A DNA stretch of 64,000 bases from an uncultured Thalassospiraceae bacterium (lineage in GTDB: Bacteria > Pseudomonadota > Alphaproteobacteria > Rhodospirillales > Casp-alpha2), in contig CAYFMP010000010.1 of NCBI GenBank assembly GCA_964344215.1, positions 7,446 to 71,445 on the forward strand, given 5' to 3'. The position numbers were made by a program, and so were the translations under genes. Positions within the stretch are counted from its first letter, which is position 1. Every line of letters begins with the position of its first letter. A model generated the notes under the pieces. That model was not told the origin of the DNA. It worked only from the letters and a program-made list of their open reading frames with translations, and searched no databases. Of the stretch, positions 5,547 to 43,148 are shown piece after piece.

Positions 5547-5569
5547 ATGCGATCCTCGGAACACCGCGT

Positions 5570-6562: not shown

Positions 6563-6585
6563 GGCGCTCCGACCCGTCCGCGCGC

Positions 6586-7635
6586 TCACTGCTGCTTGAA
6601 GATGTCCTCGGGCAGTATCTTGGCCAGCGTGTCGCGGGCCTTGGCCGCCTTCTCGTCGCCGAGGTTGGCGGCGCGGTCGATCCACATGAACGCCTGCAGG
6701 TCGTCCTTGTCGACGCCTTTCCCCTCGTAATAGAGGAAACCCAGGTTGTATTGGGCGGCGGCGTGGTCCTGCTCGCCGGCCTTGCGGAACCATTCGGCCG
6801 CTTTGGCGAAATCCTGTTCCATGCCCTGGCCCAGGTAGTTCATGATGCCGAGGTTGTACTGGGCGCCGGCGTGGCCCTTTTCGGCGGCGCGCTCGAACCA
6901 GTTGGCGGCGACCGCGTAGTCCTTCGGCACGCTGATCCCCTTGTAGTAGAGCAGTCCGCGCTTGTGGTCGGCGTCGGCGTCCATCTGCTGGAGTTCCGGC
7001 TGAGCCGGCGATGCCGGCTCGGGCGTCGGCGTCGCCGGCAAGGCGGCCTGTTGCTGCGGCGCCGGCTGTTCGGCCGGCATCGGTTCGGGTTGCGGCTCGA
7101 CTGTCGGCATCGGTTCGGGCTGCGGCTCGGCCGTCGGCATCGGCTCGGGTTGTGCTGCAGGCGCGGACTCCGGCACCGGTTCCGGCTCTGCGGTCGCCAC
7201 CTGTTCGGCCGCCGCCATCGGCTCGGCCGCTGGCATCGGCTCGGGCTGCGCGGCGGTCATGGGGATGGGCTCGGGCTGTGCCGACATCGGCTCGGGTTGC
7301 GCCGCCGCCGCCTCATCGGTTGCGGGCATGGCGGCGGGTTTGCGGCGCACCGGCTCGAGTTCGATGACGACCCTGGGCACGCCGCTCATCGAGCCCAGAC
7401 CGACGATATCGCGATAAGTCGATTTGACCGCGTAGAAGGCGTCGTCGATCTCGTAGGCGACGTCCTCCAGGACTTTGTGTTTGAGGGAAATGATGTCGTC
7501 CGTGTAGGCGCCGACGACGGGCAGGCTGCCGAGGGACGATGAAAGGGTCGAGTCGGGAATGGCGAGAACGGCGCCACCCAGAGCCAAAGCCACAAGAACG
7601 ACGATCCCGGCGATGATTTTCGGTATTCGCTTCAA
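6586..7635 (-). CDS. Membrane-anchored Sel1-repeat protein with a Pro/Glu-rich repeat linker
   Basis: 349 aa with a TTG start and an N-terminal TM (IIAGIVVLVALALGGAVLA). Central (A)QPEPMP-type repeats. C-terminal Sel1 repeats (GHAGAQYNLGIMNYLGQG, DHAAAQYNLGFLYYEGKG). Confidence 0.8.
   Translation of the reverse strand: MKRIPKIIAGIVVLVALALGGAVLAIPDSTLSSSLGSLPVVGAYTDDIISLKHKVLEDVAYEIDDAFYAVKSTYRDIVGLGSMSGVPRVVIELEPVRRKPAAMPATDEAAAAQPEPMSAQPEPIPMTAAQPEPMPAAEPMAAAEQVATAEPEPVPESAPAAQPEPMPTAEPQPEPMPTVEPQPEPMPAEQPAPQQQAALPATPTPEPASPAQPELQQMDADADHKRGLLYYKGISVPKDYAVAANWFERAAEKGHAGAQYNLGIMNYLGQGMEQDFAKAAEWFRKAGEQDHAAAQYNLGFLYYEGKGVDKDDLQAFMWIDRAANLGDEKAAKARDTLAKILPEDIFKQQ
7076..7165. repeat. Tandem 30-bp coding repeat (about 3 units; degenerate copies extend to about 7310)
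   Basis: Units 7076-7105 and 7106-7135 match at 27/30 nt (ggcatcggttcgggYtgcggctcgRcYgtc). They encode PTxEPQPEPM decapeptides on the minus strand. Confidence 0.75.
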
Positions 7636-7845
7636 CCGCGGATGTCCCCCAAGTGACCGAATTTCGAGGGCAGTCCGCCGTCGCCGGGGACCGCCAGCCT
7701 AAGTGGCTCCGGGCATTATACCCGGCGCGCCCCCGGTTTGAATTGCAATTGTGAGGGAAGTTCCTATCTGCTTGTTCCGGCCAACCGACGGTGCTTTAAC
7801 ACCCCTTCGGCCTGCCGCCCGCCAATCTCGACAAGGAGACACGAC

Positions 7846-8145
7846 ATGCCCGACGAAGTCCGCGCTTCCCATATCCTGCGTTCGACCAACGGACGCTCGA
7901 AGGAGGACGCGCTCAAGGAAATCAACGATATCAAGGCAGAGATCGAGCAAGGCTCGGATTTCGCCGACCTTGCCCGCGAGCATTCCGACTGCCCGTCCGG
8001 GCGGCGCGGCGGCGACCTCGGCGAATTCGGCCGCGGCGCCATGGTACCGGAATTCGAGGAAGCGGCGTTCAGCCTCGAAGTCGACGAGGTCAGCGACGCC
8101 GTCGAGACCGATTTCGGTTATCACCTGATCCTGCGCACCGCGTAG
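7846..8145 (+). CDS. ppiC: Parvulin-type peptidyl-prolyl cis-trans isomerase
   Basis: 99 aa from the ATG at 7846 (SD AAGGAG at 7833-7838). Motifs SHIL, CPSGRRGGDLGEFGRGAMVPEFEEAAF and FGYHLI are as in PpiC/Par10. Confidence 0.85.
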   Translation: MPDEVRASHILRSTNGRSKEDALKEINDIKAEIEQGSDFADLAREHSDCPSGRRGGDLGEFGRGAMVPEFEEAAFSLEVDEVSDAVETDFGYHLILRTA

Positions 8146-8156
8146 AGACCGCCTTC

Positions 8157-8495
8157 TCAGACGATCTCGCCATCGGGCCGGTAACGCCGCTGCGGGTCCT
8201 CGATCTCCAGAACCCAGAGATCAGGGTCGAACTTCACCTGGCGTTCGATGTAGGCATCGGCTTCGGTCTCCCCGACCGGCGCTTCGCCGGTGCCGCGCAT
8301 CCAGGCCCGCGCGCCGTCCGCCGTGCGGACCTGCGACAGAACCTCGACGCCGTCACCCAGGCGGTTGAGCTTGATCAGCACGACGCCGGCGTCCGGGTCG
8401 CCGCGCCTGACGACGATGGCCGGCATCAGGTTGACGTCGCACATCCTGATCTGCGCCTTGATCCACACGCCTGCCTTGAGAGCCGCTTCCGCCAC
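8157..8495 (-). CDS. DUF1491-family protein
   Basis: 112 aa from the GTG at 8493-8495 (AAGGA upstream). LKAGVWIKAQIRMCD...VLIKLNRL...FDPDLWVLEIED matches my memory of the alphaproteobacterial DUF1491 pattern. The longer 190-aa ORF has an Arg-rich, non-protein-like N-terminus. Confidence 0.65.
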   Translation of the reverse strand: MAEAALKAGVWIKAQIRMCDVNLMPAIVVRRGDPDAGVVLIKLNRLGDGVEVLSQVRTADGARAWMRGTGEAPVGETEADAYIERQVKFDPDLWVLEIEDPQRRYRPDGEIV

Positions 8496-8564
8496 GCCGC
8501 CGTCCTTTCCTCGTCGAGCCCGAGCCCCTAACCTTACCCGATCGTGATTTGGCGGAGCAAAGGG

Positions 8565-8966
8565 ATGTTCGAACTGCACGAGCGCCTTGAGTCCGATACC
8601 GAGTTGCTGGCCGAGTGGTCGCTGTCGAGCGTTTTGCTGATGCGCGACGCCGCCTATCCGTGGCTGATCCTGGTGCCGGCGCGCCCGCGGCTCCGCCATC
8701 TGCACGACCTCTCGGCGGCCGATCGCCAAACGGCGATGAACGAGATCGCCCGCGCCTCAGAAGCCCTGCAAACCCTCTACCGGCCCGACAAGATCAACGT
8801 GGCGGCGCTCGGCAACGTCGTCGATCAGTTGCACATCCACGTCATTGCCCGATTTCGCTCCGACCCGGCCTGGCCGGGGCCGGTGTGGGGCGCGCAACCG
8901 CCGACGGCCTATGGCGCGGCCGAGTTGGCCGAAACCGTCGCGAGGTTGCGCGAAGTTCTTGACTAG
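8565..8966 (+). CDS. HIT-family (histidine triad) protein
   Basis: 133 aa from the ATG at 8565 (GGAG 9 nt upstream). Histidine triad QLHIHVIAR. Confidence 0.8.
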   Translation: MFELHERLESDTELLAEWSLSSVLLMRDAAYPWLILVPARPRLRHLHDLSAADRQTAMNEIARASEALQTLYRPDKINVAALGNVVDQLHIHVIARFRSDPAWPGPVWGAQPPTAYGAAELAETVARLREVLD

Positions 8967-29496: not shown

Positions 29497-30812
29497 CGCC
29501 GCTCCGCCAGCACCATCATGACGAGGATCGCCGGGATCAGCGCAAGGTTCTTGACCAGCCCGCCCAGGGGTGCCAGCCACAACTCCGGCGCCTCCAGCCC
29601 GACGACGAACGTATATCCAAGAACCATCACCAGCATGGCCAGACCGGCCGGGCGGACGAAACGGGCGAACAACGCTGCGGCCCCGACCAGGATGTCGAGG
29701 ATCGAGGTCGACCAGATCGCCAAGCGATGGGTTTCCGAATCCATACCGAGGGTCGGTACCTCGCTCAGGAACGCCGACGAAATCATTGCGAAGCCGGCGA
29801 TCCCGGAGACGATCCACACGGCCGCAAGGCACAACCGCAGAACCGGGCCGAGGAAATAGAGGCGTGCATGCCAGCGGTCCTGGACGTGGCTGGGATGACG
29901 AGCAAGCGCCTCGCTAACGCTGATCGGCCTATGGCCGCTCAATGCTTCCAGGGTCTCGAAGGCGTCGTCGGCGCCGACATTGCCCCGCATCAACATCTTG
30001 TACATTGCCCGGCCCAGAGGTCCGGAGCCGAAGATCTGGCCCAGCGCGGCGCCGAATCGGACGGCAGCGCCCGGTAGCTTGGCGATGCGGACGGGCCGCA
30101 ACTTCAGCCATTGCCGCAGGTTGACCAGAAACGTGGCGAGATCCATGTGCTCTGGCCCGACGGCCTCGACGACCCTCCTGATCGGCTTGGTCCGGTCGAT
30201 GATGCCGACGACAGCAGCCGCCAGGTCCTCCGCCGTGATCGGCGCCATCTGTAGGGAGTTCCGTGAACCCGTACCCGGGACGAACAGCACCCATGGCAGC
30301 GCCGCCATGGCACGCAGCAGCGAGGTGCCGCCGTAGCTGCCCGCCGGTGACCAGACCAGCGACGGGCGGACAACGGTCCAGTCGAGGGAGGTCGCCATCA
30401 ATGCCTTGTCGCCTTCGTGCTTGGAGGCGACGAAGGCCGTGTCGGCGGCGTCACCAATGGCCGATATCTGGACGACCTTGTCGACGCCAACCTGTTCACA
30501 GGCCGCGAACAGGGCCACCGGTGCGACGCGGTGAACCCGATCGAAGGTCGCTTGGCCGGTCTCGCGCAGGATGCCCGCGCAATTGACCACGGCCTCGACG
30601 CCGTCGAGCCGCGGCAGCCAGTCGCCGGGTTCAAGGTCGCGGGCGAAGTCGCAGGCGATGCGGCCCGGCGGCGATACGCCGGTCCCGGCGCGGACCCCGC
30701 GTAGGACCGTGTGACCGCCGGATTCCAACGCCGCCGCCACGTGACTGCCGATGAACCCGTTGGCCCCCGTAACCAGAATACGCACCCGTCTTTCTCCTCC
30801 CCGCGCGCCCAT
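29493..30812 (-). CDS. NAD(P)-binding SDR/NmrA-like domain fused to a DoxX-like membrane domain
   Basis: Rossmann motif ILVTGANGFIGSHV. The C-terminal ~130 aa are four hydrophobic helices. An alternative GTG start lies at 30851. Confidence 0.78.
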   Translation of the reverse strand: MGARGGERRVRILVTGANGFIGSHVAAALESGGHTVLRGVRAGTGVSPPGRIACDFARDLEPGDWLPRLDGVEAVVNCAGILRETGQATFDRVHRVAPVALFAACEQVGVDKVVQISAIGDAADTAFVASKHEGDKALMATSLDWTVVRPSLVWSPAGSYGGTSLLRAMAALPWVLFVPGTGSRNSLQMAPITAEDLAAAVVGIIDRTKPIRRVVEAVGPEHMDLATFLVNLRQWLKLRPVRIAKLPGAAVRFGAALGQIFGSGPLGRAMYKMLMRGNVGADDAFETLEALSGHRPISVSEALARHPSHVQDRWHARLYFLGPVLRLCLAAVWIVSGIAGFAMISSAFLSEVPTLGMDSETHRLAIWSTSILDILVGAAALFARFVRPAGLAMLVMVLGYTFVVGLEAPELWLAPLGGLVKNLALIPAILVMMVLAERR

Positions 30813-30878
30813 ACTATCCCACTTGTTGAAATCCCGTCTCCATGGTTTCACAATCCATGGCTGAACGGGGAGATATCA

Positions 30879-31292
30879 ATGGAAGCGGTTTTCAAGAGCT
30901 TGCTGGCCGGGTTTCCGATCCTGATGCTGCATTCGGCGCTGACGTTTGCCATCCTGATTTGCGGCGTCCTGGTCCATGTCAGGATCACGCCCTACAGCGA
31001 CGTCAAGCTCGTCAAGGAAGGAAATACGGCTGTCGCGGTGACACTAGGCGGTGCGATCCTGGGTCTGGCGATCCCTTTGGCGTTCTGTTTGGCGAGCAGC
31101 GTCAGCGGACTCGATATCCTGGTTTGGGGTGTCGTCGTCGTGGTTCTGCAGTTGATCGCTTACAAAATCGCCGACTTCATTCTCAGCGACCTGCCACAGC
31201 GTATCGAAAATGGAGAAATCGGCGCCGCCGTCTTTCTGGTCTCGATCAAGCTCGCGGTGGCCGCGATCAATGCCGCCGCCGTCGTCGGTTAG
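30879..31292 (+). CDS. DUF350 (YjfL-like) membrane protein
   Basis: 137 aa from the ATG at 30879 (GGGGAG upstream). ITPYSDVKLVKEGNTAVAVTLGGAILGLAIPL parallels E. coli YjfL ITPHNEWQLIKNNNTAASLAFSG. Confidence 0.78.
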   Translation: MEAVFKSLLAGFPILMLHSALTFAILICGVLVHVRITPYSDVKLVKEGNTAVAVTLGGAILGLAIPLAFCLASSVSGLDILVWGVVVVVLQLIAYKIADFILSDLPQRIENGEIGAAVFLVSIKLAVAAINAAAVVG

Positions 31293-31328
31293 GGCCGGGC
31301 GGCCGACGCGGATTGAGGAAACCCCGAC

Positions 31329-32219
31329 ATGCGCATCACGACCTTCCTGTTTCTCCTGTGGGCCGGCATCGGGGTCGGCGGACTCATCCTGGAAGAGGTC
31401 GAGGCGTGGTGGCAGGATAGCTTTTCGCGCCGGCCGGATCCTCGGATCTTCGAAGGACCGCTTTGGGAGTTCGCCACCGAGGATTGGCAGCACTGGGATG
31501 TTGCCCCGAGCGAGAACGAAGTTCCGAGGCAGGCACCCGTGTTGAAAGAGATGGTTATCGAGGAACTCGAGGAAGGTGGCCCCGTCGTCGGGACGGCGTT
31601 CTCCGTGACAAGATCGGGATACTGGCTGACCGCCCGTCATGTCGTCGACAACTGCGGGAAGGTGCTGATCCAGGTCGCCTCGGATACGGGTATCAGAGTA
31701 CGAAAAATTGTCTCTCACCCGAAAGCCGATGTCAGTCTGCTGGAGACCGACCGGGGGTTCCCGCCGCTGGCCGTCGCGAAGGAGGCTGGGGACCCCGAGA
31801 ACGGATTTCACTTCGGTTTTCCACGCGCCATTCCGGGCGCGCTTCACACCACGTATCTGGGTCAAGGCCGTATCATGTTTCCAAGCCGGGTCGACTCCTC
31901 GGAGCCTGTTTTCGTCTGGACCGAGGAATCGCGCGTGCCGAATGTTTTCGAATCGCTGGGTGGGATAAGCGGTGGCCCGGTCGTCGACGATGCGGGTCGG
32001 GTCATCGGCGTGATATTGGCGGAATCGGCACGCCGCGGACGGACCTACTCGGCGACGCCCGCGACGGTCGGCCAGACACTCGATCTGGCCGGAGCCGACA
32101 TCACGGCGCCGGATACCGCCTTTTCTTACCGGCAAAGACTTACGGCAGACGATTACGCCAAGTTCGGCCGTGCCGTCATAAGAGGCTTGACGGTGGCCCG
32201 GGTGATCTGCCGGCAATAG
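31329..32219 (+). CDS. Membrane-anchored trypsin-like (S1-fold) serine peptidase
   Basis: 296 aa with an N-terminal TM. His context GTAFSVTRSGYWLTARHVV, Asp context ADVSLL, Ser context GGISGGPVVD. Confidence 0.7.
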   Translation: MRITTFLFLLWAGIGVGGLILEEVEAWWQDSFSRRPDPRIFEGPLWEFATEDWQHWDVAPSENEVPRQAPVLKEMVIEELEEGGPVVGTAFSVTRSGYWLTARHVVDNCGKVLIQVASDTGIRVRKIVSHPKADVSLLETDRGFPPLAVAKEAGDPENGFHFGFPRAIPGALHTTYLGQGRIMFPSRVDSSEPVFVWTEESRVPNVFESLGGISGGPVVDDAGRVIGVILAESARRGRTYSATPATVGQTLDLAGADITAPDTAFSYRQRLTADDYAKFGRAVIRGLTVARVICRQ

Positions 32220-32830: not shown

Positions 32831-34135
32831 TTAGTTGCTCGGCTCGACGTTCGAAGCGGGCTCGTCTTCGTCGGCTGCCGGCCCGGAAAGGGGCGGGGTT
32901 CCCTCCACCGGTTTGATTTTGAGCGGTGGAATGCGGATATCCGGAAACACTTTGACGACGTGGTTTCGGTGCGCCCACCTGACGATGCCGGCGAGGTCGC
33001 CGTAGGCGGCGATGGCCTCGTCCTCGGCGCCGAACCGCACGAATGCCCGCAGGCTCGGGCCATACTCGTCGATCTGCCACGGCCAGCCGTAGGTGAGCTC
33101 CATGTGTCGATGGGGCGGATAGAGCGGCGAGGCGACCACCCGCAGGTACTTCTCGCCGATCCGGTCCAACTCCTCGATCCCCGTCGGGTGCTCCAGGTGG
33201 TGAGGGAAGACCACGTTGCCGGCGGTGTCCCGGTGGTGGCCTCCGAACCGCTTGAGCACCTTGCGAGCCGTCTCCGGGGTCAGGGCGAGCAGAACCTCGC
33301 CGGGAATCGGTCCCGGCTTCAACGGCCGGCTCCTTGCCGCCACCTCGGCCTCCGAGGGGCGCCAGGATAACCAGGCGGTGACGAACTCCAGGAGGTTGCG
33401 AACGTATCTGGTGTGACCGAGTCGCAGGTCCACCCTGACCAGGTAGTACTTGATCAGAGGCGAGTTCGGCGCATTGAGGCGGGCCTGATGCAAGCGTGCC
33501 GCCGACTCGTTCAATCGCCCCAGACGCTCGAGGGCGACGGCGTGAGCGAGTTCGCAGTCCCACCAACAGTACCCATGGCCGCCGTTGCTTTCGACAAGCA
33601 GTCGTTCGGCCTCGACGTTTTCGCCGAGAGCCAGGAGCGCCCAGGCCCGATACTTGGGAAGCTCCTTGAACGCCGACTTCTCGATCGTCCCCGCCATTTT
33701 CTCCAGAAGCGAAGCGGCCTCCCGGAAGTCGCCACGATCCATCATCTCGACCGCGCGATAGAGGGTCTTGCGCCACGGCTCCCGACCCCGGTAGCGCGGA
33801 TTGAAGCGGCTGAAACCGCCGGCCAGCGTCAGGGGATCGATGGGCTCGACACCGGCCGCGACGGCGGCGGAAAGAAGCTCCTGCGCTTCATCGACGTTTC
33901 CCTCCCGCAGGGCTTCGACGACCGGCAATTCGGAGGTCGGCTCGGCCGCCAGCGAACCGTCCACCGGCAAGGCGACCAGCAGCGACCAGAGGATTATCGA
34001 CGCCAGCGCCGCCGCGACCCATGAACGGACGGACGCGGACTTGGAATCGGTCTTCCGGCCCACTCCATCGGTCACGGAAGGGATGTGGGCGGTCCTGTTG
34101 GGCAGATATTGAGGAGTAGAACGGCGTTTTCTCAT
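32831..34135 (-). CDS. Anchored/secreted helical-repeat (TPR-like) protein with an unrecognised His-rich C-terminal half
   Basis: 434 aa. The ATG lies 3 nt after the stop of the giant gene (TAAaccATG). N-terminal TM WVAAALASIILWSLLVALPV. TPR-like helices. C-terminus GGHHRDTAGNVVFPHHLEH... Confidence 0.65.
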   Translation of the reverse strand: MRKRRSTPQYLPNRTAHIPSVTDGVGRKTDSKSASVRSWVAAALASIILWSLLVALPVDGSLAAEPTSELPVVEALREGNVDEAQELLSAAVAAGVEPIDPLTLAGGFSRFNPRYRGREPWRKTLYRAVEMMDRGDFREAASLLEKMAGTIEKSAFKELPKYRAWALLALGENVEAERLLVESNGGHGYCWWDCELAHAVALERLGRLNESAARLHQARLNAPNSPLIKYYLVRVDLRLGHTRYVRNLLEFVTAWLSWRPSEAEVAARSRPLKPGPIPGEVLLALTPETARKVLKRFGGHHRDTAGNVVFPHHLEHPTGIEELDRIGEKYLRVVASPLYPPHRHMELTYGWPWQIDEYGPSLRAFVRFGAEDEAIAAYGDLAGIVRWAHRNHVVKVFPDIRIPPLKIKPVEGTPPLSGPAADEDEPASNVEPSN

Positions 34136-34138
34136 GGT

Positions 34139-37100
34139 TTACTGGCTCCACGACCCGTCGGCCTGCCGGCAGGCGACGGATTGTCCGGTGCGTTCCTCGC
34201 GTCCCTTGAGGATGAATATCTGCCGATAGACGCGGCAGGGCTCGCCGTTCTGACCCGCGAAGCGGCCGCTCAGGACGATCAGGCCGGCATGTCCGATTCC
34301 GTTGTTCTCCCAGCGAAAAGCCTCTCCGTCGCGGGCGATCTGAAAAGCCGCCAGGTAGGTTTCGTGAATGACATCGCGGTCGGCCTTCGTCAGCCGCGTC
34401 TTCACGGAATCGCTGACGCCGGGGCCGAGCAACGTCGTGTCGATGCGCTTCAGGAACGCGAGCTTCGCCTGCTGCATTGCCTGCTTCTTGGCTTCCTGCT
34501 CCTTGATCTCGAGCAACCGCTGCTGCTCGGCCAGCGCCTGCTGCGCGCGCGCTTCGAGAACCGTGGCCCGCTGCGCCATCAGGCCCTCGTGCCCGGGGGA
34601 TACGTCGAGCCCCTTGGCGGCGAAGGACCCGGCCTTCTCGAATTCCTCCATTATGAGGGCGTTCCTCGACAGTGCCAGATAACGCTCGGCGATGCGGACC
34701 ATTCCTTCCTTTGCTTCTCGGCTGTCCGGATCGATTTCGAGGACGCTCCGGAGCGTCTCGTAGGCGTTGTCGCCGGGCGGCGCGGTCAGGCGATCCGCGG
34801 CCAGCTGCCCGGCGGCCGTATCGAGGAGTTGGCGGAGCCGGTCGGATGGGGGCGGCGGCGCCAGCGAGGCCGTAACCGCCGCCGATTCCTTTTCGAGATC
34901 CTCGGAAAGCTCCTTTTGCGGCGGTGTTTGGCCCGGCCGCTCGTAGGCGACCAGTCGCGGTTGTCGTGCCGCCACGGTGCGTCCTTCCTTGTCCACTTGA
35001 ATCAGGGTCGTCTTGCGATCGGCGATCTCGACGCCGTCGATGCGGACATCCTTGCCGGCGGCGCGGATCACCACGCCGTAAACGCCGGCCGGAACCTCCA
35101 CGGCCGGGCCGCCGACCCGTCCGTCCGCGATCGTCTCTCCGCCCAGGTCGCGCACCTCGAACGGCGCGTTGAAGGTTTGGCGGAGGGCGGCGCGAAGCTT
35201 TTCTGCGTTGCCGGCTTCGTAGAACGTACCGCCAGCCACTTCCGCCAGGTCGCGAAGACTGTCGGCGATGTTCTTGCGGCCGACGGCGAATCCGACGATG
35301 TCCATTCGAACCTTGAAACCGGACTCCCGCAAGTCGCGGATAACTTCCGGCGGAAAGTATGGACTTCCCGGTCCATGGCAATCGTCGACGCCGTCGGTGA
35401 CCAGGATCACCTTTCTGTCCTCGGCGTCGGACGGAAAGTCGCCGGGGATCTGGCTCAGGCTGTAGCCCATGGCCGTCTGGCTCTTGCGCCCGCCGTGGAC
35501 GCGCTGGCCGATCCATTCGATGAGCTTGCCCCGGTAATCCGCGTTCATCGGCACGATCTTCGCCACCTGCCCCGTCGTCGAGAGACAGCGATCGCGCTTG
35601 CTGGCGTTGGGATTGCTCGGCGGAAACCCGAAAGCCCGCAGTCCCAGAAGAACCCCGTCGGGGATGTCCTCGATCATGCCGATAAGCGCTTTCTTCGCCG
35701 CCGTCAGCCTGTTCTTCTCTTTCGGGCAGCGGACGTCGCGGTTCAGGCACCATCCCATGCTGCCGGAGAGATCGACCACGAGGTCGATGGCGGCGGCGTT
35801 CGGGGCGACGACCCGCTCGCCGATCTCTTCTATTCGCAGGGTTCCCATGCCCCGGGATACGTCGGCTTTGAGGCGGTAAAAGGTATCGCTCGAGATTTCC
35901 TCGCGAACGGCGCCATAGAGATCGACAAGTCTTTCGGAGGCGGGCGTGAACAGGAACCGCCCGCCGGTCGCTTCCGCCATGGCGCGCAGCGTGTCGGCGC
36001 CGGTGCTGGCGTAGTCCTTGGAGAAGACGTCCCAAAAATAACTCAACGGCTCGCCGAGCCCGATGGTGTAAATGCGGACGGAATCGGTCTCGACGGTCTC
36101 CCAGAACTTCCGGTAGGACGCGCCCTTGGACGTGGAATCCTTGCCGTCGGTCATGGCGATGATGGCCCTGTTCCCGACCTTGCCGACCGCTTCCTTGGCG
36201 GCGACGATGGCGTCGAAGAACGAGGTCCCCCCCTTGGCATAGATCACACGATCCTTTCCGGTGTTTTCCAGAATCCCGATCAGCAGGCAATGCTGCCGGG
36301 CCGATCCGCTCTCGGGGCAGGCGTCCTTGACCTGCTGCTGTGCCTTCTCTGGATCGATTTCCTCGACATCCGCCCCGAACCGAATCAGACGGATGTCCTC
36401 GTCGGCCGGGGCGCCGCGGATATAGGAAACGAGCGCCTCGCGCAGGTGCTCGGTCCGGCCCTCCATGCTGCCGCTGGTGTCAAAGACGAGAGCGACCGTG
36501 GTCCTCGGCTGACTGACGCGGAACCGGTAACGACCGGCCGGCACGTTCCACGACCAGTCGAACCGGGGCGTCGTCGCCGTCGCCGGGCTGAAGGTCTTGA
36601 CCGTGTTTCCCGTCTCGTCCTCCAGTCCGACCGAGGTTCGAATGTAGGGCCGACTCTCCATCTCCACGTTGATGGTGTTGAAAGGTTCCTCCGGCGCCAA
36701 GGCGAAGAAATCGGTCTCGCCGGAGCGGGTTCGACCGGCGACGGTTTTTCCCGTTTGCAGCGGGTTGGCCGTGGCCGGCGTATCGTTGGCCTCGGTCTCG
36801 CAAACGACGTCGGCGCCGCCGCAGGCGAACGGCTCGACGCCGCCCGGTGTCGTTGCCCGCGCCCCCACGGCTTCGCTACCGGGTCGGGCCTCGACGAGGA
36901 TAGAGTGGCGGCCGCCGGCGGTCTCCTCGATCACGCGGACCTTCCCTAGGGTCGTGCGCGAACCGCCGTGATTCGACAGGATGCGCAACTCCACATAGCG
37001 CGCCGGTGTCGGTTCATTGAAGACAAGCTCCCATGGGCCGCCTTCTTTCGACAGGACCAGCGGCTGCGGTCGGTCGAAAGCCGCCGTCCGGAAATCGGCA

Positions 37101-39787
37101 ACCGGGCTTCGGCGCGAGACCAGGACCCGGAGGTCCTTGATGCGCGTCTCCGGCGGATCAGTGGCCGAGGGGACGACAACGATCTTGCGAAGTAGCGCCT
37201 CGCGGCCGTCGCGGAAGCCGATCACCAACCGAATGGGGAAGTCCTCCTCGCCCCGCGTCTCGGGTGTTGCCCAGGCCATCTTCTCCAGCTTTTCGTCACG
37301 ATGGTCGATCAGCAGGCTGGCGTTTCTTTCCTGCTCCTGGGTCGAGAAGAACGCCAGGTGTCCGCCCAAGCGGGAGTCGGCGATGTCGAACTCGGCGTCG
37401 GCCAGGACGGAAGCGCGGCCGGCCGCCTCGAAGACCTTGACCTCGCCCAGGACCGGCGCCTTGCCGCCGTAGGTGGAGCGGACGATCAACTTCAGGAAAC
37501 GCGCCTCGGTCGGCGCGAATCGCACCACCCGGGGTCCCCAGTCGGAATCCAGGATATAGGTGCCGATCTTCGCAAAACCGGCTTCGTCCTGAAAACTCTC
37601 CGCCGTCGAGGCGTGCAGTTCGAACAGACGGACGTGGCGAGCGGGCTTCCTGCCTCCGGCTTCGACGCGGGAATCCAGTACCACGGTGTCGATCGTGGCC
37701 ACTTGCCCGTCTCGAAAAGCGAGGATCAGTTGTTGGGTCTGGCCCGGTCCGTCATTCCCCGACCAGCCCGGCGACGCCGCGTGGCTGCCGTCCGTCAGGT
37801 ATCTCGCGAACCAACCGTTGTCGTTGTACGGATAGGAGCCGGCGTATTCGGAAGTGGCGGCGACGACACGGCCGCCGAGGCCGTTCCAGGCGATATTCAG
37901 GCGGCCCGCCGTCTGCCCGGCCAGCGGTTCCGTGAAAGCTTCGGCCAACAGGGTGGTCTCGCCGGCGGCCGGGGTTTCGGGGACGATCACGTCGTCGATC
38001 GCCGCCCTCAGCGTGTAGGGTTCTCCGCCGATGGCTCGATAAACGGACCGTATGGCGACGCGAAGGCGGCGGGCGCGGACGGCCGGAAACGAGAGTTCCT
38101 GGTAGGCCTCGACGTTGTCCAGCAGATAGGTGCCGAGCGGCGTGAAATCGCCGGCCTGTTCGGAGTTCGAGTAGGACACCTCCACCTCTCTCGGCACTGC
38201 GGTCTTGGAATACCCGCCGACGACGGGGCGCAGGAGAAGGCGGTCGAGCCGCGCCTCACGCCCGTCCAGGAAGCCGAGGACGAATCCCTGGCCGGCGGCG
38301 GCGCCCGCAGTCAGCCACGATCCCGCCGAGGGGCCGATCAGCTTGTCCTTGTCGGCGGCGCGCGACGACACCCAGATCACCCGGCCGCCGAGGGCGGGAT
38401 CGGCCAGGTTGGCCATGCGGTCGCTCTTCGCGACCTCGGCCACCGGCCGCGTCCGAACGCCCTCGAGTATCGACGGGCGGCCCTGGGATTCCAGGGCCAT
38501 CAACTCGACGATCCCGTAGCGGCCGCCGGCGTGGGTGGAAAGCACCCTGAGCTTGAGCCGCCGCGCCCGGACCGGCGCGAAGGCGATCTCCTGGAAGCGC
38601 ATCACCGGCCGCATCTGAGCCCGTCCGACGGTTCTGAAGTCGTCTCCCTCGGCGCTGGAGGACACGGCCACCTCGATCTCTTTCGGAAAGCCCCGCCCCT
38701 TGTCCGGCATCACAACGACCTTTTCGAGCAGCGCCTCGCGGTCGCCGAAGAACGAGAACACCAGGTCGTGCGGCAGGTCGGCCCGTTGCGGGAGCCAGTT
38801 GGTGTACGAGTCGCCGTCGATCATCCTGATTCTTTCGCTCTTGTAGGACGGCACGGACGCGACCCATCCACCGTTGGCGAAGGCGGCGACGTTGACGGCC
38901 GGGCCGACGTCGGCTTCCTCGATCGGGTGGACCGGCAACGTCGGCGTCGGTTCCGCTTCCGCCGCCGATCCGGCCGGCGGGGACGCCGGTTCGGCGGCAT
39001 CTGGCGCGGCGGCGGGCTTCGAGGTTGCGGGCGCAACCGGCGCCTCGGCCGTTTCGGTCGCCGATGCCGCCGAAGGCGGTGGCGCCTCGGGCGTTTCGGT
39101 GGCCGGCGCGGCGACGGCGCCGGCCGGCGGTTCCGCCGCCTCCAGGACCATGATCTCGCCGATCGCCGCTTTTCGCGGCTTGCCGGGCCTGCCTTCGTAG
39201 ATCGACAGGATGCGGACGCGGACGAAGCGCGCCGGCCGCGGCGCGAAGGCCAGCGACTGCAAGCTCTTTTGTTCCTTCAGCAGATAGACGCCGACGGCCT
39301 CGAAGCCGGTTTTCGGTCCGCTCGCCGAAACGGCGATCTCGACCTCCTTGGGCAGCCGCCCGCGCTGCCAGTGGCCGGAGCGGATCACCACCCGGTCGAT
39401 TGTCGCCGTCCCGCCGCCCAGTTCGATGACGATGTCCGTGGGCTCGACCGGCGACAGGTCCTCGCCCGCCCGCCAGCCGTTTTTCAGCTTGCCGTCGATG
39501 AGACGGTCCTTGGCGAAATCGTTGGACGGCACGCCGACGACCCGGCCGCCGGCCGCGGAAAGCGCCAGATTGCTAGAGGCCGAAAGTTCGGGATCGGCAA
39601 TTGGCTTTGCTACCTCGGCTTCAGCCGCCAGCGGGAGCACGGTTGGAATACTGAGTAGAAGGCCGGCGACAGTTGCAGCAGCGCAGCAGAACGCAAGTCG
39701 GGCACTGAGACGTGCGACAGGGTTTGGAGAAAGACATGTTACCGTGTCAACGTATGTATATCTCCGTTCGTGTGTCCGCCAAAACAT
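34139..39787 (-). CDS. Giant (1,882 aa) membrane-anchored multidomain surface protein: 5x discoidin-like, PPC-like, 2x vWA, coiled coil, surface-antigen-like end
   Basis: ATG at 39785-39787, or TTG at 39814. ORF-track numbering: TM 41-65; F5/8-type-C-like modules about 80-225, 305-442, 468-612, 638-796, 808-963; PPC-like 1003-1102 (NDTPATANPL); vWA1 1105-1300 (DTSGSM, GGTSFF, MTDGKD); vWA2 1342-1550 (DLSGSM, SQTAMG, VTDGVDD); coiled coil 1750-1790; C-terminal WENNGIGHAG...CRVYRQ...ACRQADGSW. Confidence 0.85.
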   Translation of the reverse strand: MFWRTHERRYTYVDTVTCLSPNPVARLSARLAFCCAAATVAGLLLSIPTVLPLAAEAEVAKPIADPELSASSNLALSAAGGRVVGVPSNDFAKDRLIDGKLKNGWRAGEDLSPVEPTDIVIELGGGTATIDRVVIRSGHWQRGRLPKEVEIAVSASGPKTGFEAVGVYLLKEQKSLQSLAFAPRPARFVRVRILSIYEGRPGKPRKAAIGEIMVLEAAEPPAGAVAAPATETPEAPPPSAASATETAEAPVAPATSKPAAAPDAAEPASPPAGSAAEAEPTPTLPVHPIEEADVGPAVNVAAFANGGWVASVPSYKSERIRMIDGDSYTNWLPQRADLPHDLVFSFFGDREALLEKVVVMPDKGRGFPKEIEVAVSSSAEGDDFRTVGRAQMRPVMRFQEIAFAPVRARRLKLRVLSTHAGGRYGIVELMALESQGRPSILEGVRTRPVAEVAKSDRMANLADPALGGRVIWVSSRAADKDKLIGPSAGSWLTAGAAAGQGFVLGFLDGREARLDRLLLRPVVGGYSKTAVPREVEVSYSNSEQAGDFTPLGTYLLDNVEAYQELSFPAVRARRLRVAIRSVYRAIGGEPYTLRAAIDDVIVPETPAAGETTLLAEAFTEPLAGQTAGRLNIAWNGLGGRVVAATSEYAGSYPYNDNGWFARYLTDGSHAASPGWSGNDGPGQTQQLILAFRDGQVATIDTVVLDSRVEAGGRKPARHVRLFELHASTAESFQDEAGFAKIGTYILDSDWGPRVVRFAPTEARFLKLIVRSTYGGKAPVLGEVKVFEAAGRASVLADAEFDIADSRLGGHLAFFSTQEQERNASLLIDHRDEKLEKMAWATPETRGEEDFPIRLVIGFRDGREALLRKIVVVPSATDPPETRIKDLRVLVSRRSPVADFRTAAFDRPQPLVLSKEGGPWELVFNEPTPARYVELRILSNHGGSRTTLGKVRVIEETAGGRHSILVEARPGSEAVGARATTPGGVEPFACGGADVVCETEANDTPATANPLQTGKTVAGRTRSGETDFFALAPEEPFNTINVEMESRPYIRTSVGLEDETGNTVKTFSPATATTPRFDWSWNVPAGRYRFRVSQPRTTVALVFDTSGSMEGRTEHLREALVSYIRGAPADEDIRLIRFGADVEEIDPEKAQQQVKDACPESGSARQHCLLIGILENTGKDRVIYAKGGTSFFDAIVAAKEAVGKVGNRAIIAMTDGKDSTSKGASYRKFWETVETDSVRIYTIGLGEPLSYFWDVFSKDYASTGADTLRAMAEATGGRFLFTPASERLVDLYGAVREEISSDTFYRLKADVSRGMGTLRIEEIGERVVAPNAAAIDLVVDLSGSMGWCLNRDVRCPKEKNRLTAAKKALIGMIEDIPDGVLLGLRAFGFPPSNPNASKRDRCLSTTGQVAKIVPMNADYRGKLIEWIGQRVHGGRKSQTAMGYSLSQIPGDFPSDAEDRKVILVTDGVDDCHGPGSPYFPPEVIRDLRESGFKVRMDIVGFAVGRKNIADSLRDLAEVAGGTFYEAGNAEKLRAALRQTFNAPFEVRDLGGETIADGRVGGPAVEVPAGVYGVVIRAAGKDVRIDGVEIADRKTTLIQVDKEGRTVAARQPRLVAYERPGQTPPQKELSEDLEKESAAVTASLAPPPPSDRLRQLLDTAAGQLAADRLTAPPGDNAYETLRSVLEIDPDSREAKEGMVRIAERYLALSRNALIMEEFEKAGSFAAKGLDVSPGHEGLMAQRATVLEARAQQALAEQQRLLEIKEQEAKKQAMQQAKLAFLKRIDTTLLGPGVSDSVKTRLTKADRDVIHETYLAAFQIARDGEAFRWENNGIGHAGLIVLSGRFAGQNGEPCRVYRQIFILKGREERTGQSVACRQADGSWSQ

Positions 39788-39861
39788 CCCTTTTTCTTCG
39801 TCGATGTTCACCAATTTCGTTTTCTCGTTCGATAGAGAATCTGGTTACACTGCTCCTCTAT

Positions 39862-42405
39862 CTACAGTCTTCCACCTAGGATCTTTCCAGGGTTCCCCAT
39901 ACTCGGAACGGTTCCAATAATCCCACCAACCACCTGAACAATGATTGCCTGGTAAAAACGTTTCCGGCCCAATGAAAGAATTCCCCCGAATCCAGAAACC
40001 AAACCAGCGAATCCACAGATCCCGACATCGGTCCAATCGTTCGCGCTGATCATGCACTGACCGACGTTTATGATGCCGACTAACACATGGATAATGAATC
40101 TCTCAGTAAGGTCCTGACCTCTTCCCCCTTCCATTATGCCCAGCAGATCTCCGTTGGTCGGATCAATTCGCCACCATCCCACGAGGAGGCCAGAGGTCGT
40201 TTCAGAAAACTTCTCCGGCACAATGACGACGGCACCTCTGCGCAGGTCTCCTTCAATGTCCGCTTTCGCATTCTCCGAAATTTCGAGTTGTTCCAATTCA
40301 CTCAAGGATTTTTCATCGCCGCGCAATAAAACCAGCCGAACGTCATTCTTAGCGGCAGCGTCGAAAACGGCTTTTATATTGTTCGAAACCCGCCAGGAAC
40401 CTGGTGAAGAGTTCGCTGGCCTCACGAAAAGTTGGGCGAGGTGCCTCTCAACGGCCGTCTCGATGATGCCCTTGTACATTCGGTATTTTGTGGCACTCCG
40501 GCCTTCAGCATCGTTTGCTTCATTTTGCCTGGAAAACACACGTACGGGAGTGCGAACGATGTCAAATCCTTCGGTCATTGTGGCTTGTTTCGCGCCCTTG
40601 GCCGACATACGCCGCTCGTAGATCACCAATCCGGGTCGGTTGACGAAGGATCGGAGGTCGGGAAATCGTATTTCTGCAAGGGATGCCGCAGCCGATGCCG
40701 AGTTTCTCTCAAATTCCATCAACCTACTTGGAAACAACCGAACTCTTTGCTTGGCAATAGAAGTGTCCTCGGCGGAACGATTGTACGCTATGCTCAACAG
40801 TGAATTCAGGTACTTCCTGTTTCCCGTGATTGTTGCAATATGACTGTAGGTGAGATAGGCCTCATCAAGTAGTCCTACTGGCGTCATGATTTCCATGGAG
40901 CGAAACAGTTGTAGTTTCAGCTTTTCGATGTCCCGGTACACTCTGGGGTGAGCGGACCAATGTTCCCTCCCACTCTTCGACCATTTTTCGATCGAGATTG
41001 ATTTTGCGATGTCACGGCGAACGCTGAACCGACTCACCTCCGCTCCTAGACCCCGTGGCGAATCCAAAGTGTAGGTCGCCCAAAGCCCTCCGATGCGCTT
41101 GCCATCCGATTGCGGCGGAGTCGTCGAATTCTTACTGGTTGTTGGTTGTGTCAGAGGCGTCAATCGTCCAATGATCGACGTTAACGTTTCCCTTTGGGGC
41201 GCGGCAAAGTTTCCAAGCATCGTTGCCAACGAACCTTTCTTATAGTCGTAAACCCTGCCGTGGAAGTCGAAGGAGCGGCCGATTACGGGGTCGTAATCTC
41301 CAACAATCAGCATAGGCGTGAATTCGGAGATAGCCGCAATCCTCTCCCTCGACGTTAGTTTTTGGTTGGGGTTTATGTTTGGTAGATTGATCAGGACAAC
41401 GCTCTGGCCGACTAATTCTGCTACGCGCAGTTTCACCGCGAGCAGCTCGTGATCTACGGTTTCACCGCCATTCTGCATTTCCGCATGGTCAATCGTGCGA
41501 AGTATGACACTCAAGCCGAGGACATGAAAAAGCCTATCGGGCAAGGTATTTAAAAAATACGATGGATCGGCTGGAACTTCCCCAACGTTGGAGTTGCCGA
41601 ACGAAGGGTCGACGTTGATCCAATTTCCCGATCGGTCTTGAAATTGCACCCAGAAATGCTCACGCGCTTCGGCCACCATCTCTTTATACGTTCGGCCACG
41701 GTCATCATCGGTTCCGAGTGCGACCCCGTATTCGGACAGTGTGTGATTGATTAGCGCATAATCGTCTTCCACATCTTCCCAGAGATGTTCCGCAAAATCC
41801 TCAGATCGATCGGTAATCTCACTGTGAACACGCTGTAGAGCAGAATTATCGAGACCCAACATACCTAAAAGCTTGCTCACTTCTTCCAGAGTGATTATGT
41901 CCGCTTTATCGCCAAGTGTTGTTTTTGGTTCGAATACTTCTTCCACCAACCTCTTGGCATCGCCATCGCCGAGCCGTCCCATGGCGAACCGCGTCTTGAA
42001 CCCATTCTTTTTCAGAAGTTCCGCCAGCAGCACGCTTTGATCGAGCGAGTTGCCGGCCCGTCCCATCAGCGTCCCCTTGGCGCCGCGCAACACCCCCCAA
42101 TAGGGCTCGTAGCGCACCTCGTCGCGGACGAAGGCGAAGATCTTCTCGACGTCCGGCCCCAGCGCCTCCGCCTTGGCTTCGACGTCGAACCTGGTCTTGT
42201 CGATCTTCCCTTCCAGGTATTCGAGGGCGGCGAACATGCGGTCCAGCCGCTCCTTCGCCTGCTCGTAGGTCAAGTCGGGCCGGGCTTCGCCCGGCGCCGG
42301 CGCGCCGGTCTGGGCGACGACTTGAGACGGCAGCACGGTCGCCGCCGCGAAGGCGGCGGCGGTGAGCGCGGCGATGGTTTTCCGACGAACGATGGAACAA
42401 AGCAC
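39862..42405 (-). CDS. Secreted transglutaminase-fold protein (Ser at the nucleophile position) with a Gly-rich hydrophobic C-terminus
   Basis: 847 aa from the GTG at 42403-42405 (GGGAGG 7 nt upstream). Signal peptide ...AAFAAATVLPSQVVAQ. TGase-core-like VRDEVRYEPYWGVLRGAKGTLMGRAGNSLDQSVLLAELLKKNGFKTRF and HFWVQFQDRSGNWINVDPSF. Confidence 0.78.
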   Translation of the reverse strand: MLCSIVRRKTIAALTAAAFAAATVLPSQVVAQTGAPAPGEARPDLTYEQAKERLDRMFAALEYLEGKIDKTRFDVEAKAEALGPDVEKIFAFVRDEVRYEPYWGVLRGAKGTLMGRAGNSLDQSVLLAELLKKNGFKTRFAMGRLGDGDAKRLVEEVFEPKTTLGDKADIITLEEVSKLLGMLGLDNSALQRVHSEITDRSEDFAEHLWEDVEDDYALINHTLSEYGVALGTDDDRGRTYKEMVAEAREHFWVQFQDRSGNWINVDPSFGNSNVGEVPADPSYFLNTLPDRLFHVLGLSVILRTIDHAEMQNGGETVDHELLAVKLRVAELVGQSVVLINLPNINPNQKLTSRERIAAISEFTPMLIVGDYDPVIGRSFDFHGRVYDYKKGSLATMLGNFAAPQRETLTSIIGRLTPLTQPTTSKNSTTPPQSDGKRIGGLWATYTLDSPRGLGAEVSRFSVRRDIAKSISIEKWSKSGREHWSAHPRVYRDIEKLKLQLFRSMEIMTPVGLLDEAYLTYSHIATITGNRKYLNSLLSIAYNRSAEDTSIAKQRVRLFPSRLMEFERNSASAAASLAEIRFPDLRSFVNRPGLVIYERRMSAKGAKQATMTEGFDIVRTPVRVFSRQNEANDAEGRSATKYRMYKGIIETAVERHLAQLFVRPANSSPGSWRVSNNIKAVFDAAAKNDVRLVLLRGDEKSLSELEQLEISENAKADIEGDLRRGAVVIVPEKFSETTSGLLVGWWRIDPTNGDLLGIMEGGRGQDLTERFIIHVLVGIINVGQCMISANDWTDVGICGFAGLVSGFGGILSLGRKRFYQAIIVQVVGGIIGTVPSMGNPGKILGGRL

Positions 42406-42632
42406 GGCCTCGCCTCCCTTCAGGACCGGAAAGGAATCCCCGGGGCTTCCCGGCTCCACTCGCCTCCCTGCCTTCGTCAAAGCGGGAGGTCGCATTTCGT
42501 AATATCCATACTATCGTTCAGGTTTTTCGAGTATGACGGAAATCCGTCCGCCGTCCAAGCCGCGAAACCGTTCGTCTGCTGGTCCCTCGATTACCGGAGT
42601 TTTCCGCCGCCTCTACCAGCCGTCCAGTCAAA

Positions 42633-42977
42633 TTAGCCAGGTCCGGGCACGCTCGAATTCGGCCCGTCGAAGACGCAAGGCGCGCAGAGCCGGTCGCAGC
42701 GGAGCGCCGCCAGGATGTCCTTCAAACCGTGCAGCGTCAGGTGCGGTGTTCGGCGGATTTGCTCAACGATGAAGTCCCGATGTCGATCAAGGACTAGACG
42801 GCGATGTCCGCCCATCTGGCCCGGCGCCACGCTGCCCGTCGCCCAATAGCGTTGCGACCACTTCACCACAGAGGAAACCGCAACACCAAAACGCTCGCCA
42901 ACAGACCGGCAGCTCTCCCCAGACCCAACCGCCGAAACAACCCGTTCTCGAAGATCATTGGAAAAAGGCCGTGCCAT
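42633..42977 (-). mobile_element. IS630-family transposase N-terminal remnant
   Basis: MARPFSNDLRERVVSAVGSGESCRSVGERFGVAVSSVVKWSQRYWATGSVAPGQMGGHRR... is the HTH part of IS630-type transposases. Homology stops after about 95 aa. No DDE domain or inverted repeats were found. Confidence 0.7.
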
Positions 42978-43148
42978 GGAGGCTGGCCTCCTCCTCGAGC
43001 ATCCATCCTGAATCACATTCTCAGCAAAATGGGGATCCCATGTCGATTCAATCACGCAATGACAGGCTCTAGAACGACATCACCAAGACCCAAACAACCG
43101 AGCTTGTCTCATGGGCCCGATTATAGAAGCGGACTTCTCGACCCACAC

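Follow-up and report, generated by a model that had tools for sequence, protein, structure and literature searches.

The collagen-binding domains of the collagenases ColG and ColH, the F5/8 type C (discoidin) and CBM32 domains, the mussel byssus protein PTMP1 (proximal thread matrix protein 1), the Bat proteins and the 17 kDa surface antigen lipoproteins of Alphaproteobacteria are the closest described counterparts of a very large protein, here called the giant, that is encoded on the minus strand at positions 34139-39787 of a stretch of DNA from an uncultured Thalassospiraceae bacterium (contig CAYFMP010000010.1 of assembly GCA_964344215.1). The whole of this stretch (64,000 nucleotides (nt)) is referred to as the window, and coordinates are those of the window unless another locus is named. 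PTMP1 is a eukaryotic protein in which two consecutive vWA domains each bear a metal ion-dependent adhesion site (MIDAS). The Bat proteins (~ 300 amino acids (aa), with one vWA domain and membrane helices) belong to the bacterial envelope, where BatA-BatC work with, or are fused to, TPR proteins, while the 17 kDa lipoproteins combine a glycine zipper with a small C-terminal domain (Pfam PF16998, 17kDa_Anti_2).

The giant shares one part or another with each of these systems. Its five N-terminal modules fall in the discoidin/CBM32 fold family (according to Pfam and to profile matches with solved structures), but they are strongly diverged, only module 2 reaching the Pfam cut-off singly, and in the giant's family they stand as arrays ahead of a vWA core. 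The PPC module that follows is similar to the ColG/ColH collagen-binding domain in profile and in fold and has a conserved E-x-E-x-N-D and D motif, but it lies below Pfam PPC detection and is joined to no peptidase. Two consecutive MIDAS-bearing vWA domains are shared with PTMP1, whereas the identity to PTMP1 is just 15-16%, the query-normalised template modelling (TM) score is low (0.22), and the giant's discoidin array, PPC module and β-sandwich have no counterpart in PTMP1. The Bat proteins resemble the giant's family in the association of envelope vWA proteins with TPR proteins and, weakly, in sequence and fold, but the giant is 1,882 aa long and has two vWA domains. Finally, the last ~ 90 residues are the same domain as in the 17 kDa lipoproteins, with the invariant columns kept, although here this domain ends a protein of 1,882 aa without a lipobox or glycine zipper ahead of it.

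From the evidence set out below, it seems that the giant is exported and tethered to the envelope, where it would serve as a multivalent binding or scaffold protein in concert with a pseudo-transglutaminase and a TPR partner, a reading to which a probability of roughly 0.6 is given.

Domain architecture of the giant

The gene is a single uninterrupted open reading frame (ORF) of 1,882 codons counted from its ATG, with the reading frame open upstream of this ATG as far as a TTG at 39814. The long ORFs antisense to it are the usual by-product of a GC (guanine plus cytosine) content of 66%. Its domain order is five discoidin/F5_F8_type_C modules, a PPC module, two vWA domains, a β-sandwich, a helical stalk and a C-terminal PF16998 domain. 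This layout had been proposed in an earlier annotation made from the letters and their translation (hereafter the sequence-only reading), and was confirmed domain by domain. The parts are listed below, in which hidden Markov model (HMM) values refer to the family-module HMM and model features to AlphaFold2.

39620..39787, minus strand: N-terminus (residues 1-56), with an n-region, the hydrophobic stretch L31-A54 and PLAAEA/EV; from its sequence, probably a Sec signal peptide
39134..39586, minus strand: discoidin-like module 1 (residues 68-218); Pfam F5_F8_type_C alone 8.7e-6, HMM 9.3e-40
38909..39133, minus strand: Pro/Ala/Glu-rich linker (residues 219-293), seen in the sequence and shorter in relative P0090
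38483..38908, minus strand: discoidin-like module 2 (residues 294-435); Pfam F5_F8_type_C 2.3e-6 (28.2 bits), HMM 1.3e-37
37976..38425, minus strand: discoidin-like module 3 (residues 455-604); no single-module Pfam match, HMM 1.7e-28 over the full model length
37421..37912, minus strand: discoidin-like module 4 (residues 626-789), with a longer loop insert; Pfam F5_F8_type_C 3.3e-5, HMM 8.6e-38
36920..37402, minus strand: discoidin-like module 5 (residues 796-956); HMM 7.8e-33, member of the last-module clade (98/98)
36506..36829, minus strand: PPC module of the collagenase collagen-binding-domain type (residues ~ 987-1094), with the motif C-E-T-E-A-N-D; profile against the PDB, Foldseek
35888..36505, minus strand: vWA domain 1 (residues ~ 1095-1300); Pfam VWA_2 and VWA_3, MIDAS columns, model
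35798..35887, minus strand: β-hairpin linking vWA1 and vWA2 (residues ~ 1301-1330); strands E345-354 and E357-364 of the core model, YRLR...G.G.L.V...GE conserved
35174..35797, minus strand: vWA domain 2 (residues ~ 1331-1538); Pfam VWA 5.8e-6, invariant columns, model
34949..35173, minus strand: seven-strand β-sandwich (residues ~ 1539-1613), conserved in the family; model strands E585-655 at a predicted local distance difference test (pLDDT) score of 81-92
34403..34915, minus strand: helical stalk (residues 1625-1795); model helices H25-100 and H108-161, a TPR-like pair followed by a helix of 54 residues
34142..34402, minus strand: C-terminal 17kDa_Anti_2 (PF16998) domain with two conserved Cys; Pfam 6e-4, lipoprotein alignment, pLDDT 88-97

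The motifs N-[LVI]-A, GG-[RHW]-[VL], [LI]-[IT]-DG, P-[KR]-E-[VI]-E-V and A-R-x-[VL]-x-[VL] each occur five times in the giant at regular spacing, in modules of ~ 140-165 aa that are 27-38% identical to module 1 when all five are aligned. Scanned as a whole, the giant matches Pfam F5_F8_type_C (PF00754) in three stretches with 79.1 bits (E = 4e-22; gathering cut-off 28.2). The modules alone reach 28.2 bits (module 2, at the cut-off), 26.3 bits (module 1), 24.4 bits (module 4) and 11.9 bits (module 5), while module 3 gave no F5_F8_type_C match in Pfam. An HMM built from 42 modules of other family proteins (i.e. with the giant's own modules left out) recovers all five over the full model length, with E-values of 1e-28 to 1e-40. 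A profile of the five modules also matches solved F5/8 type C proteins (7jnb, 7.7e-11; 7jfs, 6.6e-10), as well as the galactose-binding-like domain of IFT25/HSPB11 (1tvg, 6e-6) and several CBM32 structures. Judged from such sequence comparisons, the discoidin fold holds for all five modules, which had been recognised in the sequence-only reading by their common pattern. CBM32 and discoidin domains have no ligand-site residues in common that a sequence comparison could look for. The DNA of the giant contains no tandem repeats, and its direct repeats are at most 52 nt long with 60-84% identity, so that the modules are old duplicates, as was already thought from their divergence. In the module tree, the last modules of the family members group as orthologs by position, with a support of 98/98. 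Recent duplication of the modules at the DNA level was considered as well, and is ruled out by the repeat scans together with this tree of old, positionally orthologous modules. The linker of ~ 75 aa reported between modules 1 and 2 is indeed present.

After the last module, the closest relatives (P0003, P0004, P0005 and ORFs at the loci L001-L008) share a co-linear block of ~ 620 residues with the giant. Pfam PPC (PF04151) gave no match at E <= 10 for the start of this block (residues 958-1095), where only FlgD_ig was found (0.009). Nevertheless, the PPC-like module that the sequence-only reading had placed here is supported by a profile built from ten family members, which matches ColG s3a-s3b (5iku, 8.6e-12), ColH (3jqw, 3.8e-6) and ColG s3b (4hpk, 2.6e-5, spanning the whole domain at positions 2-103) in the PDB. 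It is supported as well by the AlphaFold2 model of the core (residues 958-1627, mean pLDDT 75.4, predicted TM score 0.70), of which the PPC part superposes in Foldseek on the collagen-binding domains 2o8o, 4hpk and 3jqw with TM scores of 0.69-0.71 and root-mean-square deviations of 2.3-2.9 Å. In the ColG collagen-binding domain, an N-terminal acidic/Asn cluster binds Ca2+. Within the giant's family, the E, N and D columns of the acidic/Asn motif are invariant and the second E is nearly so.

Both vWA domains score above the Pfam cut-offs, the first with VWA_2 (35.1 bits) and VWA_3 (33.8 bits) at residues 1098-1246, and the second with VWA (27.1 bits) at residues 1336-1532. The DxSxS...T...D residues are D1103, S1105, S1107, T1188 and D1214 in vWA1 and D1339, S1341, S1343, T1438 and D1465 in vWA2, and all ten positions are invariant in a family alignment of 11 sequences. 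By the secondary-structure string of the model, they would fall behind strand 1, ahead of a helix and where strand 4 ends, matching the canonical positions (β1-α1 loop, N-terminus of a helix, end of β4). The sequence-only reading of two complete vWA domains is supported. Cys1401 and Cys1470 of vWA2 are invariant in the family too. An insert of ~ 35 residues with two Cys (DACPESGSARQHC) interrupts vWA1 at residues ~ 1140-1180 (window ~ 36250-36370); it is modelled with low confidence, and is common to the orthologs P0090 and L108 and absent in more distant relatives. The best overall structural match of the core model in Foldseek is PTMP1 (4e-13), besides inter-alpha-inhibitor heavy chain 1 (ITIH1), the pilus adhesin SpaC, integrin beta I-like domains and the Bacteroides aerotolerance-related vWA protein 4jdu (1.4e-6). 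The small β-sandwich expected after the vWA pair appears in the model with seven strands; its residues gave no Pfam match, and many family members end at it.

The AlphaFold2 model of the tail (residues 1625-1882), made with 25 sequences homologous to the last domain, has a mean pLDDT of 82.8. The predicted structure contains several helices, among which one of 54 residues (1732-1785), and a compact four-strand domain, in keeping with the helical or coiled-coil stalk proposed before. In alignment, the first stalk helices correspond to the beginning of P0003's fused TPR region. PF16998 matches the C-terminus with 20.0 bits (E = 6e-4) and 18.0 bits, below its cut-off of 26.6. The C-terminal ~ 90 residues match the genome's own Gly-zipper lipoprotein at E = 3e-8, and this lipoprotein itself scores PF16998 at 1.8e-11. 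The giant moreover keeps all eight invariant columns (W, N, G, G, C, C, G, W) of a 26-sequence alignment of ~ 170-aa proteins from this genome and 24 related genomes (one of these proteins scores PF16998 at 44.3 bits), and with this the resemblance to alphaproteobacterial surface antigens was borne out. Small proteins with this domain are present in 27 of the 30 related genomes that were searched. The giant's own genome (G000) has two that share PF16998, at C51:15783-16046 (L082 1489-1983, minus strand) and C107:7957-8208 (L083), in open frames of 166 aa; the one at L082 is 164 aa long from its start codon and has a lipobox and a glycine zipper.

The wider family

No Pfam or NCBIfam model covers the core (library scans), and no paper on the discoidin-PPC-2xvWA-sandwich architecture was found in literature searches. 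An exhaustive search with a profile of the PPC-2xvWA-sandwich core over 1.84 billion cluster representatives (50%-identity clusters) yielded 5,290 representatives below 1e-30. The best 150 of these score 422-933 bits, and nearly all carry the core fully or to their length limit (P0165 matches it only as short repeated stretches). The core is common to at least 150 sequence clusters. Over these best 150, the number of discoidin modules ahead of the core is zero in 20 representatives, one in 26, two in 82, three in nine, four in six, five in six and six in one. The sequence-only reading had called the architecture unusual, which is not upheld when at least 150 representatives carry the core, 7 of the 150 have five or six modules, and orthologs of the same layout exist; "unusual" applies to the database record and not to nature. 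The idea that the giant is unique, or nearly so, had been suggested by a word-indexed search and was overturned by the exhaustive profile search.

The ortholog P0090 (1,787 aa) is 39% identical to the giant over 1,859 aligned positions and has five modules, the same stalk and the same C-terminal domain, while the protein at L108 (1,919 aa, six modules) is 34% identical and can be aligned across the stalk up to where the C-terminal domain begins. The giant is co-linear with both over the full length, modules and tail included, but differs from these relatives and P0003 in its longer Pro/Ala/Glu linker, its long n-region and its separate downstream TPR gene. It belongs to a small sub-family with the same stalk and C-terminal domain inside a larger family that has no name, and members of which (e.g. 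P0090, the L108 giant and P0003) are annotated only as "VWA domain-containing protein" or "hypothetical". Convergent with the gene for P0090 lies another gene (L107 6100-10152, minus strand) for a protein of 1,350 aa (Big_7, Sel1). Over a stretch of 298 aa this protein shares 46% identity with the vWA2 region of the giant, so that the locus holds a second paralog of different build.

Export, docking and partner genes

The N-terminus of the giant has a charged n-region of 30 residues, followed by 24 hydrophobic residues and by PLAAEA/EV, an AxA-type site with Pro at -6. From codon 2 onwards there is no in-frame ATG, GTG or TTG before V50, and therefore the 30-residue n-region belongs to the reading. 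Ordinary signal peptides start the relatives L006, P0004, L007 and P0090, and L003 has a lipobox. The sequence of the giant's N-terminus probably represents a Sec signal peptide that can be cleaved and whose n-region is long. Given the cleavable signal peptides of the orthologs and the AxA-type site of the giant itself, the earlier claim of a single N-terminal anchor is not supported. In the protein on record, P0002 (1,833 aa), the GTG of V50 (window 39640) is taken as the start codon; this start is probably miscalled, as it would delete the hydrophobic export segment.

About 30 of the best 150 core representatives run more than 150 residues past the sandwich. Among the tails that were scanned, five contain PG_binding_1 (E = 6e-10 to 4e-24) and others SH3_3, PDZ or TPR domains, while P0036 carries PG_binding_1 plus 17kDa_Anti_2 (the latter with 31.9 bits, above the cut-off, when its C-terminal tail is scanned alone). 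The giant's small two-Cys β-domain is otherwise found at the C-terminus of outer-membrane-type glycine-zipper lipoproteins of this lineage. Both the envelope and cell-wall docking tails and the conservation of the Cys pairs point to a location of the family outside the cytoplasm, and it is because its orthologs have signal peptides (one with a lipobox) and the Cys pairs are invariant that the giant is taken to be exported. Likewise, because relatives carry PG_binding_1, SH3_3, PDZ, TPR or PF16998 after the same core, the tail probably docks to the envelope, which suggests, from sequence comparison, that the tethered end is the C-terminal tail and not the N-terminus.

The genes on either side of the giant are the following:

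39862..42495, minus strand: gene for an exported transglutaminase-fold protein of 877 aa (Pfam Transglut_core 3e-7), upstream of the giant with a gap of 74 nt
32831..34135, minus strand: gene for a TPR protein of 434 aa (Pfam TPR_19, TPR_14) with one N-terminal hydrophobic segment, beginning 3 nt past the giant's stop codon

The transglutaminase-fold protein has a Ser in place of the catalytic Cys (GNSLDQS), and none of its homologs has Cys at that position (motif GN[SAT]xD[RQ][AS]), while the contexts of the His and Asp are kept; it is probably a non-catalytic binding partner. It ends in a Gly-rich hydrophobic tail. A homologous gene adjoins a family member at 8 of 13 other loci (L001, L002, L003, L007, L008, L108, L111 and L112), which makes 14 loci examined with the giant's own. 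In P0103 (1,786 aa), a transglutaminase-like domain, again without the Cys (GSNLDRT), is fused behind the vWA core at residues ~ 1110-1440, and this fusion links the two neighbouring genes. At L002, in an Alphaproteobacteria metagenome-assembled genome (MAG), the partner (4992-8873, plus strand; 1,293 aa) has a C-terminal PF03497 (Anthrax_toxA) domain (1.2e-14) that is absent in the partner of the giant. TPR regions are fused to the relatives P0003, P0026, P0029 and others. No terminator-like site was found in either intergenic gap flanking the giant, and terminator and promoter scans of the operon gave nothing above chance. The adjacency at 8 of 13 loci, the fusion in P0103, the TPR fusions, the 3-nt gap and the lack of a terminator-like site are the reasons to link the giant to both partners.

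If the giant is indeed such an exported binding or scaffold protein, the N-terminal hydrophobic stretch would serve as the Sec signal peptide for its export, and the mature protein would reside in an oxidising compartment (i.e. the periplasm or the cell surface), with its C-terminal tail docked to the envelope. The lectin-like modules could then bind a glycan or another polymer, while each MIDAS would use a divalent cation to hold an acidic side chain of some protein ligand, and the giant would act jointly with the products of its two neighbouring genes, the Cys-less transglutaminase-fold protein and the TPR protein.

Several observations weigh against this. Neither L005 nor L113 has a transglutaminase-fold neighbour, and none was found at the truncated or short loci either; nor was a homolog of the separate TPR gene found at other family loci. 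An uncleaved signal anchor would likewise be compatible with the 30-aa n-region and 24-aa hydrophobic stretch. Among solved structures (PDB), nothing matches the C-terminal domain in sequence or fold, and the MIDAS residues were placed from sequence and predicted secondary structure. Furthermore, no secretion system is encoded near the giant, so that surface exposure is putative, and no ligand, location or phenotype is on record for any family member.

Other explanations and the setting of the locus

That same long hydrophobic N-terminal segment is one of the reasons to consider the giant as part of a Bat-like vWA/TPR assembly in the periplasm or inner membrane, which would be held by an uncleaved N-terminal anchor and serve, with the TPR protein, in envelope homeostasis or stress tolerance instead of adhesion. 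The combination of vWA and TPR partners (cf. BatA/BatB/BatC), the fold match of the core to 4jdu (1.4e-6), weak NCBIfam matches to BatA (3e-4) and acidobact_VWFA (7.8e-14), both under their cut-offs, and the peptidoglycan-binding tails of relatives, which suit the periplasm, all agree with it. However, the signal peptides of the orthologs are ordinary and cleavable, and Bat proteins are without discoidin arrays and a PPC module. All Bat-type scores are far below the cut-offs (19.9 bits versus 380 for BatA), and no MoxR ATPase or DUF58 protein was found among the scanned genes adjoining the giant, the rest of the genome not having been searched for them. The function of the Bat proteins is itself not established (PMC3557215). 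A Bat-like role is considered unlikely, although it survives better than the other alternatives.

Adhesion at the cell surface is the essence of a second alternative, in which the giant would be exported over the outer membrane by an unidentified route and bind collagen-like, other triple-helical or extracellular-matrix proteins. The resemblance of the PPC module to the collagen-binding domain of ColG/ColH fits with this, as do the tandem vWA domains of PTMP1 and the integrin I domains, which are collagen-binding exemplars. Discoidin domains of the discoidin-domain receptors bind collagen as well. Against this, collagen is one ligand among many for PPC, vWA and discoidin domains alike, the peptidoglycan-binding tails of relatives point inward and there are no secretion genes near the giant. 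Moreover, nearly every family member that was found stems from a metagenome assembly, and the phyla concerned are diverse and for the most part uncultured. A collagen adhesin is thus improbable, and more so than a Bat-like assembly. In a separate comparison, the giant scored 13.1 bits with the marine proteobacterial sortase target model TIGR03788 (cut-off 551.65) and is not a member of it.

It is very improbable that the giant forms part of a conflict or defence system (of the ternary, vWA-based type that has a lectin-like sensor). PADLOC gave no match for the giant or the transglutaminase-fold protein, domain scans of the three window genes detected no MoxR, STAND or effector domain, and an extracytoplasmic location is indicated by the signal peptide and the Cys pairs. 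In favour of such a system are the toxin-type PF03497 domain in the transglutaminase-fold partner of one relative, the IS630 stub and low-GC stretch beside the locus (see below), and the fact that predicted conflict systems contain vWA domains and lectin domains of the discoidin fold (PMC8195603).

The GC content of the giant (0.663) is typical for the genome (0.638), whereas that of the transglutaminase-fold gene (0.541) lies at the low end of the range of the genome's 2-kb windows, and the stretch beyond it, including the IS630 stub, is also an outlier. Over positions 39600-42000 the GC content falls from 0.68-0.73 in the giant to 0.50-0.53 over most of the transglutaminase-fold gene, and is 0.667 in the first ~ 400 bp of that gene (only 0.7% of the 2-kb windows of the genome have a GC content of 0.52 or less). 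The transglutaminase-fold gene, one gene of a conserved pair, is therefore a compositional mosaic. Thirty genomes from its own family or order were searched for the protein body of the giant, and all lack it, having only the small lipoproteins with its C-terminal domain. Full-length relatives among GTDB species are few and scattered over Alphaproteobacteria MAGs, a Rhizobiaceae MAG, Gammaproteobacteria, Vicinamibacteria, Trueperaceae and Ca. Geohabitans. This distribution points to horizontal spread, whereas the normal GC content of the giant weighs otherwise as far as a recent acquisition is concerned, the outlier being the transglutaminase-fold gene and what lies beyond.

The locus is bordered by the IS630 stub, an ORF of 140 aa (window 42633-43055, minus strand) that corresponds only to the HTH N-terminus of IS630-type transposases (4.8e-7). 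On the other side, a DUF350 membrane protein (2.1e-31) and then a Trypsin_2 peptidase of 296 aa (5.4e-14) are encoded at 30711-32219 on the plus strand, convergent with the giant operon. An overlapping minus-strand ORF of 390 aa (31044-32216) is probably spurious.

To return to the exported, envelope-tethered binding protein that is favoured here, the giant itself is built of familiar binding domains, and it is the family with its pseudo-transglutaminase partner that deserves description. The core defines a large family without a Pfam or NCBIfam model and without a studied member. Its partner at many loci, and in one case its fusion partner, is a transglutaminase-fold protein lacking the catalytic Cys. 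For the functionally uncharacterised PF16998 domain, the giant provides a second context, namely the end of a large binding protein. The variable tails, as cell-wall and envelope docking modules, give a concrete and testable hint of where the giants of this family work. More tentatively, and with less than even odds, the giant and its Cys-less neighbour might constitute an undescribed two-gene envelope module that is patchily distributed across many phyla, in which interchangeable C-terminal tails (PG_binding_1, SH3_3, PDZ, TPR or PF16998) would plug a lectin-array/PPC/tandem-vWA protein into the peptidoglycan or the outer membrane, where it would form, together with the pseudo-transglutaminase, an envelope scaffold or sensor. 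If this were true, it would be a role that has so far been assigned to none of the constituent domain families.

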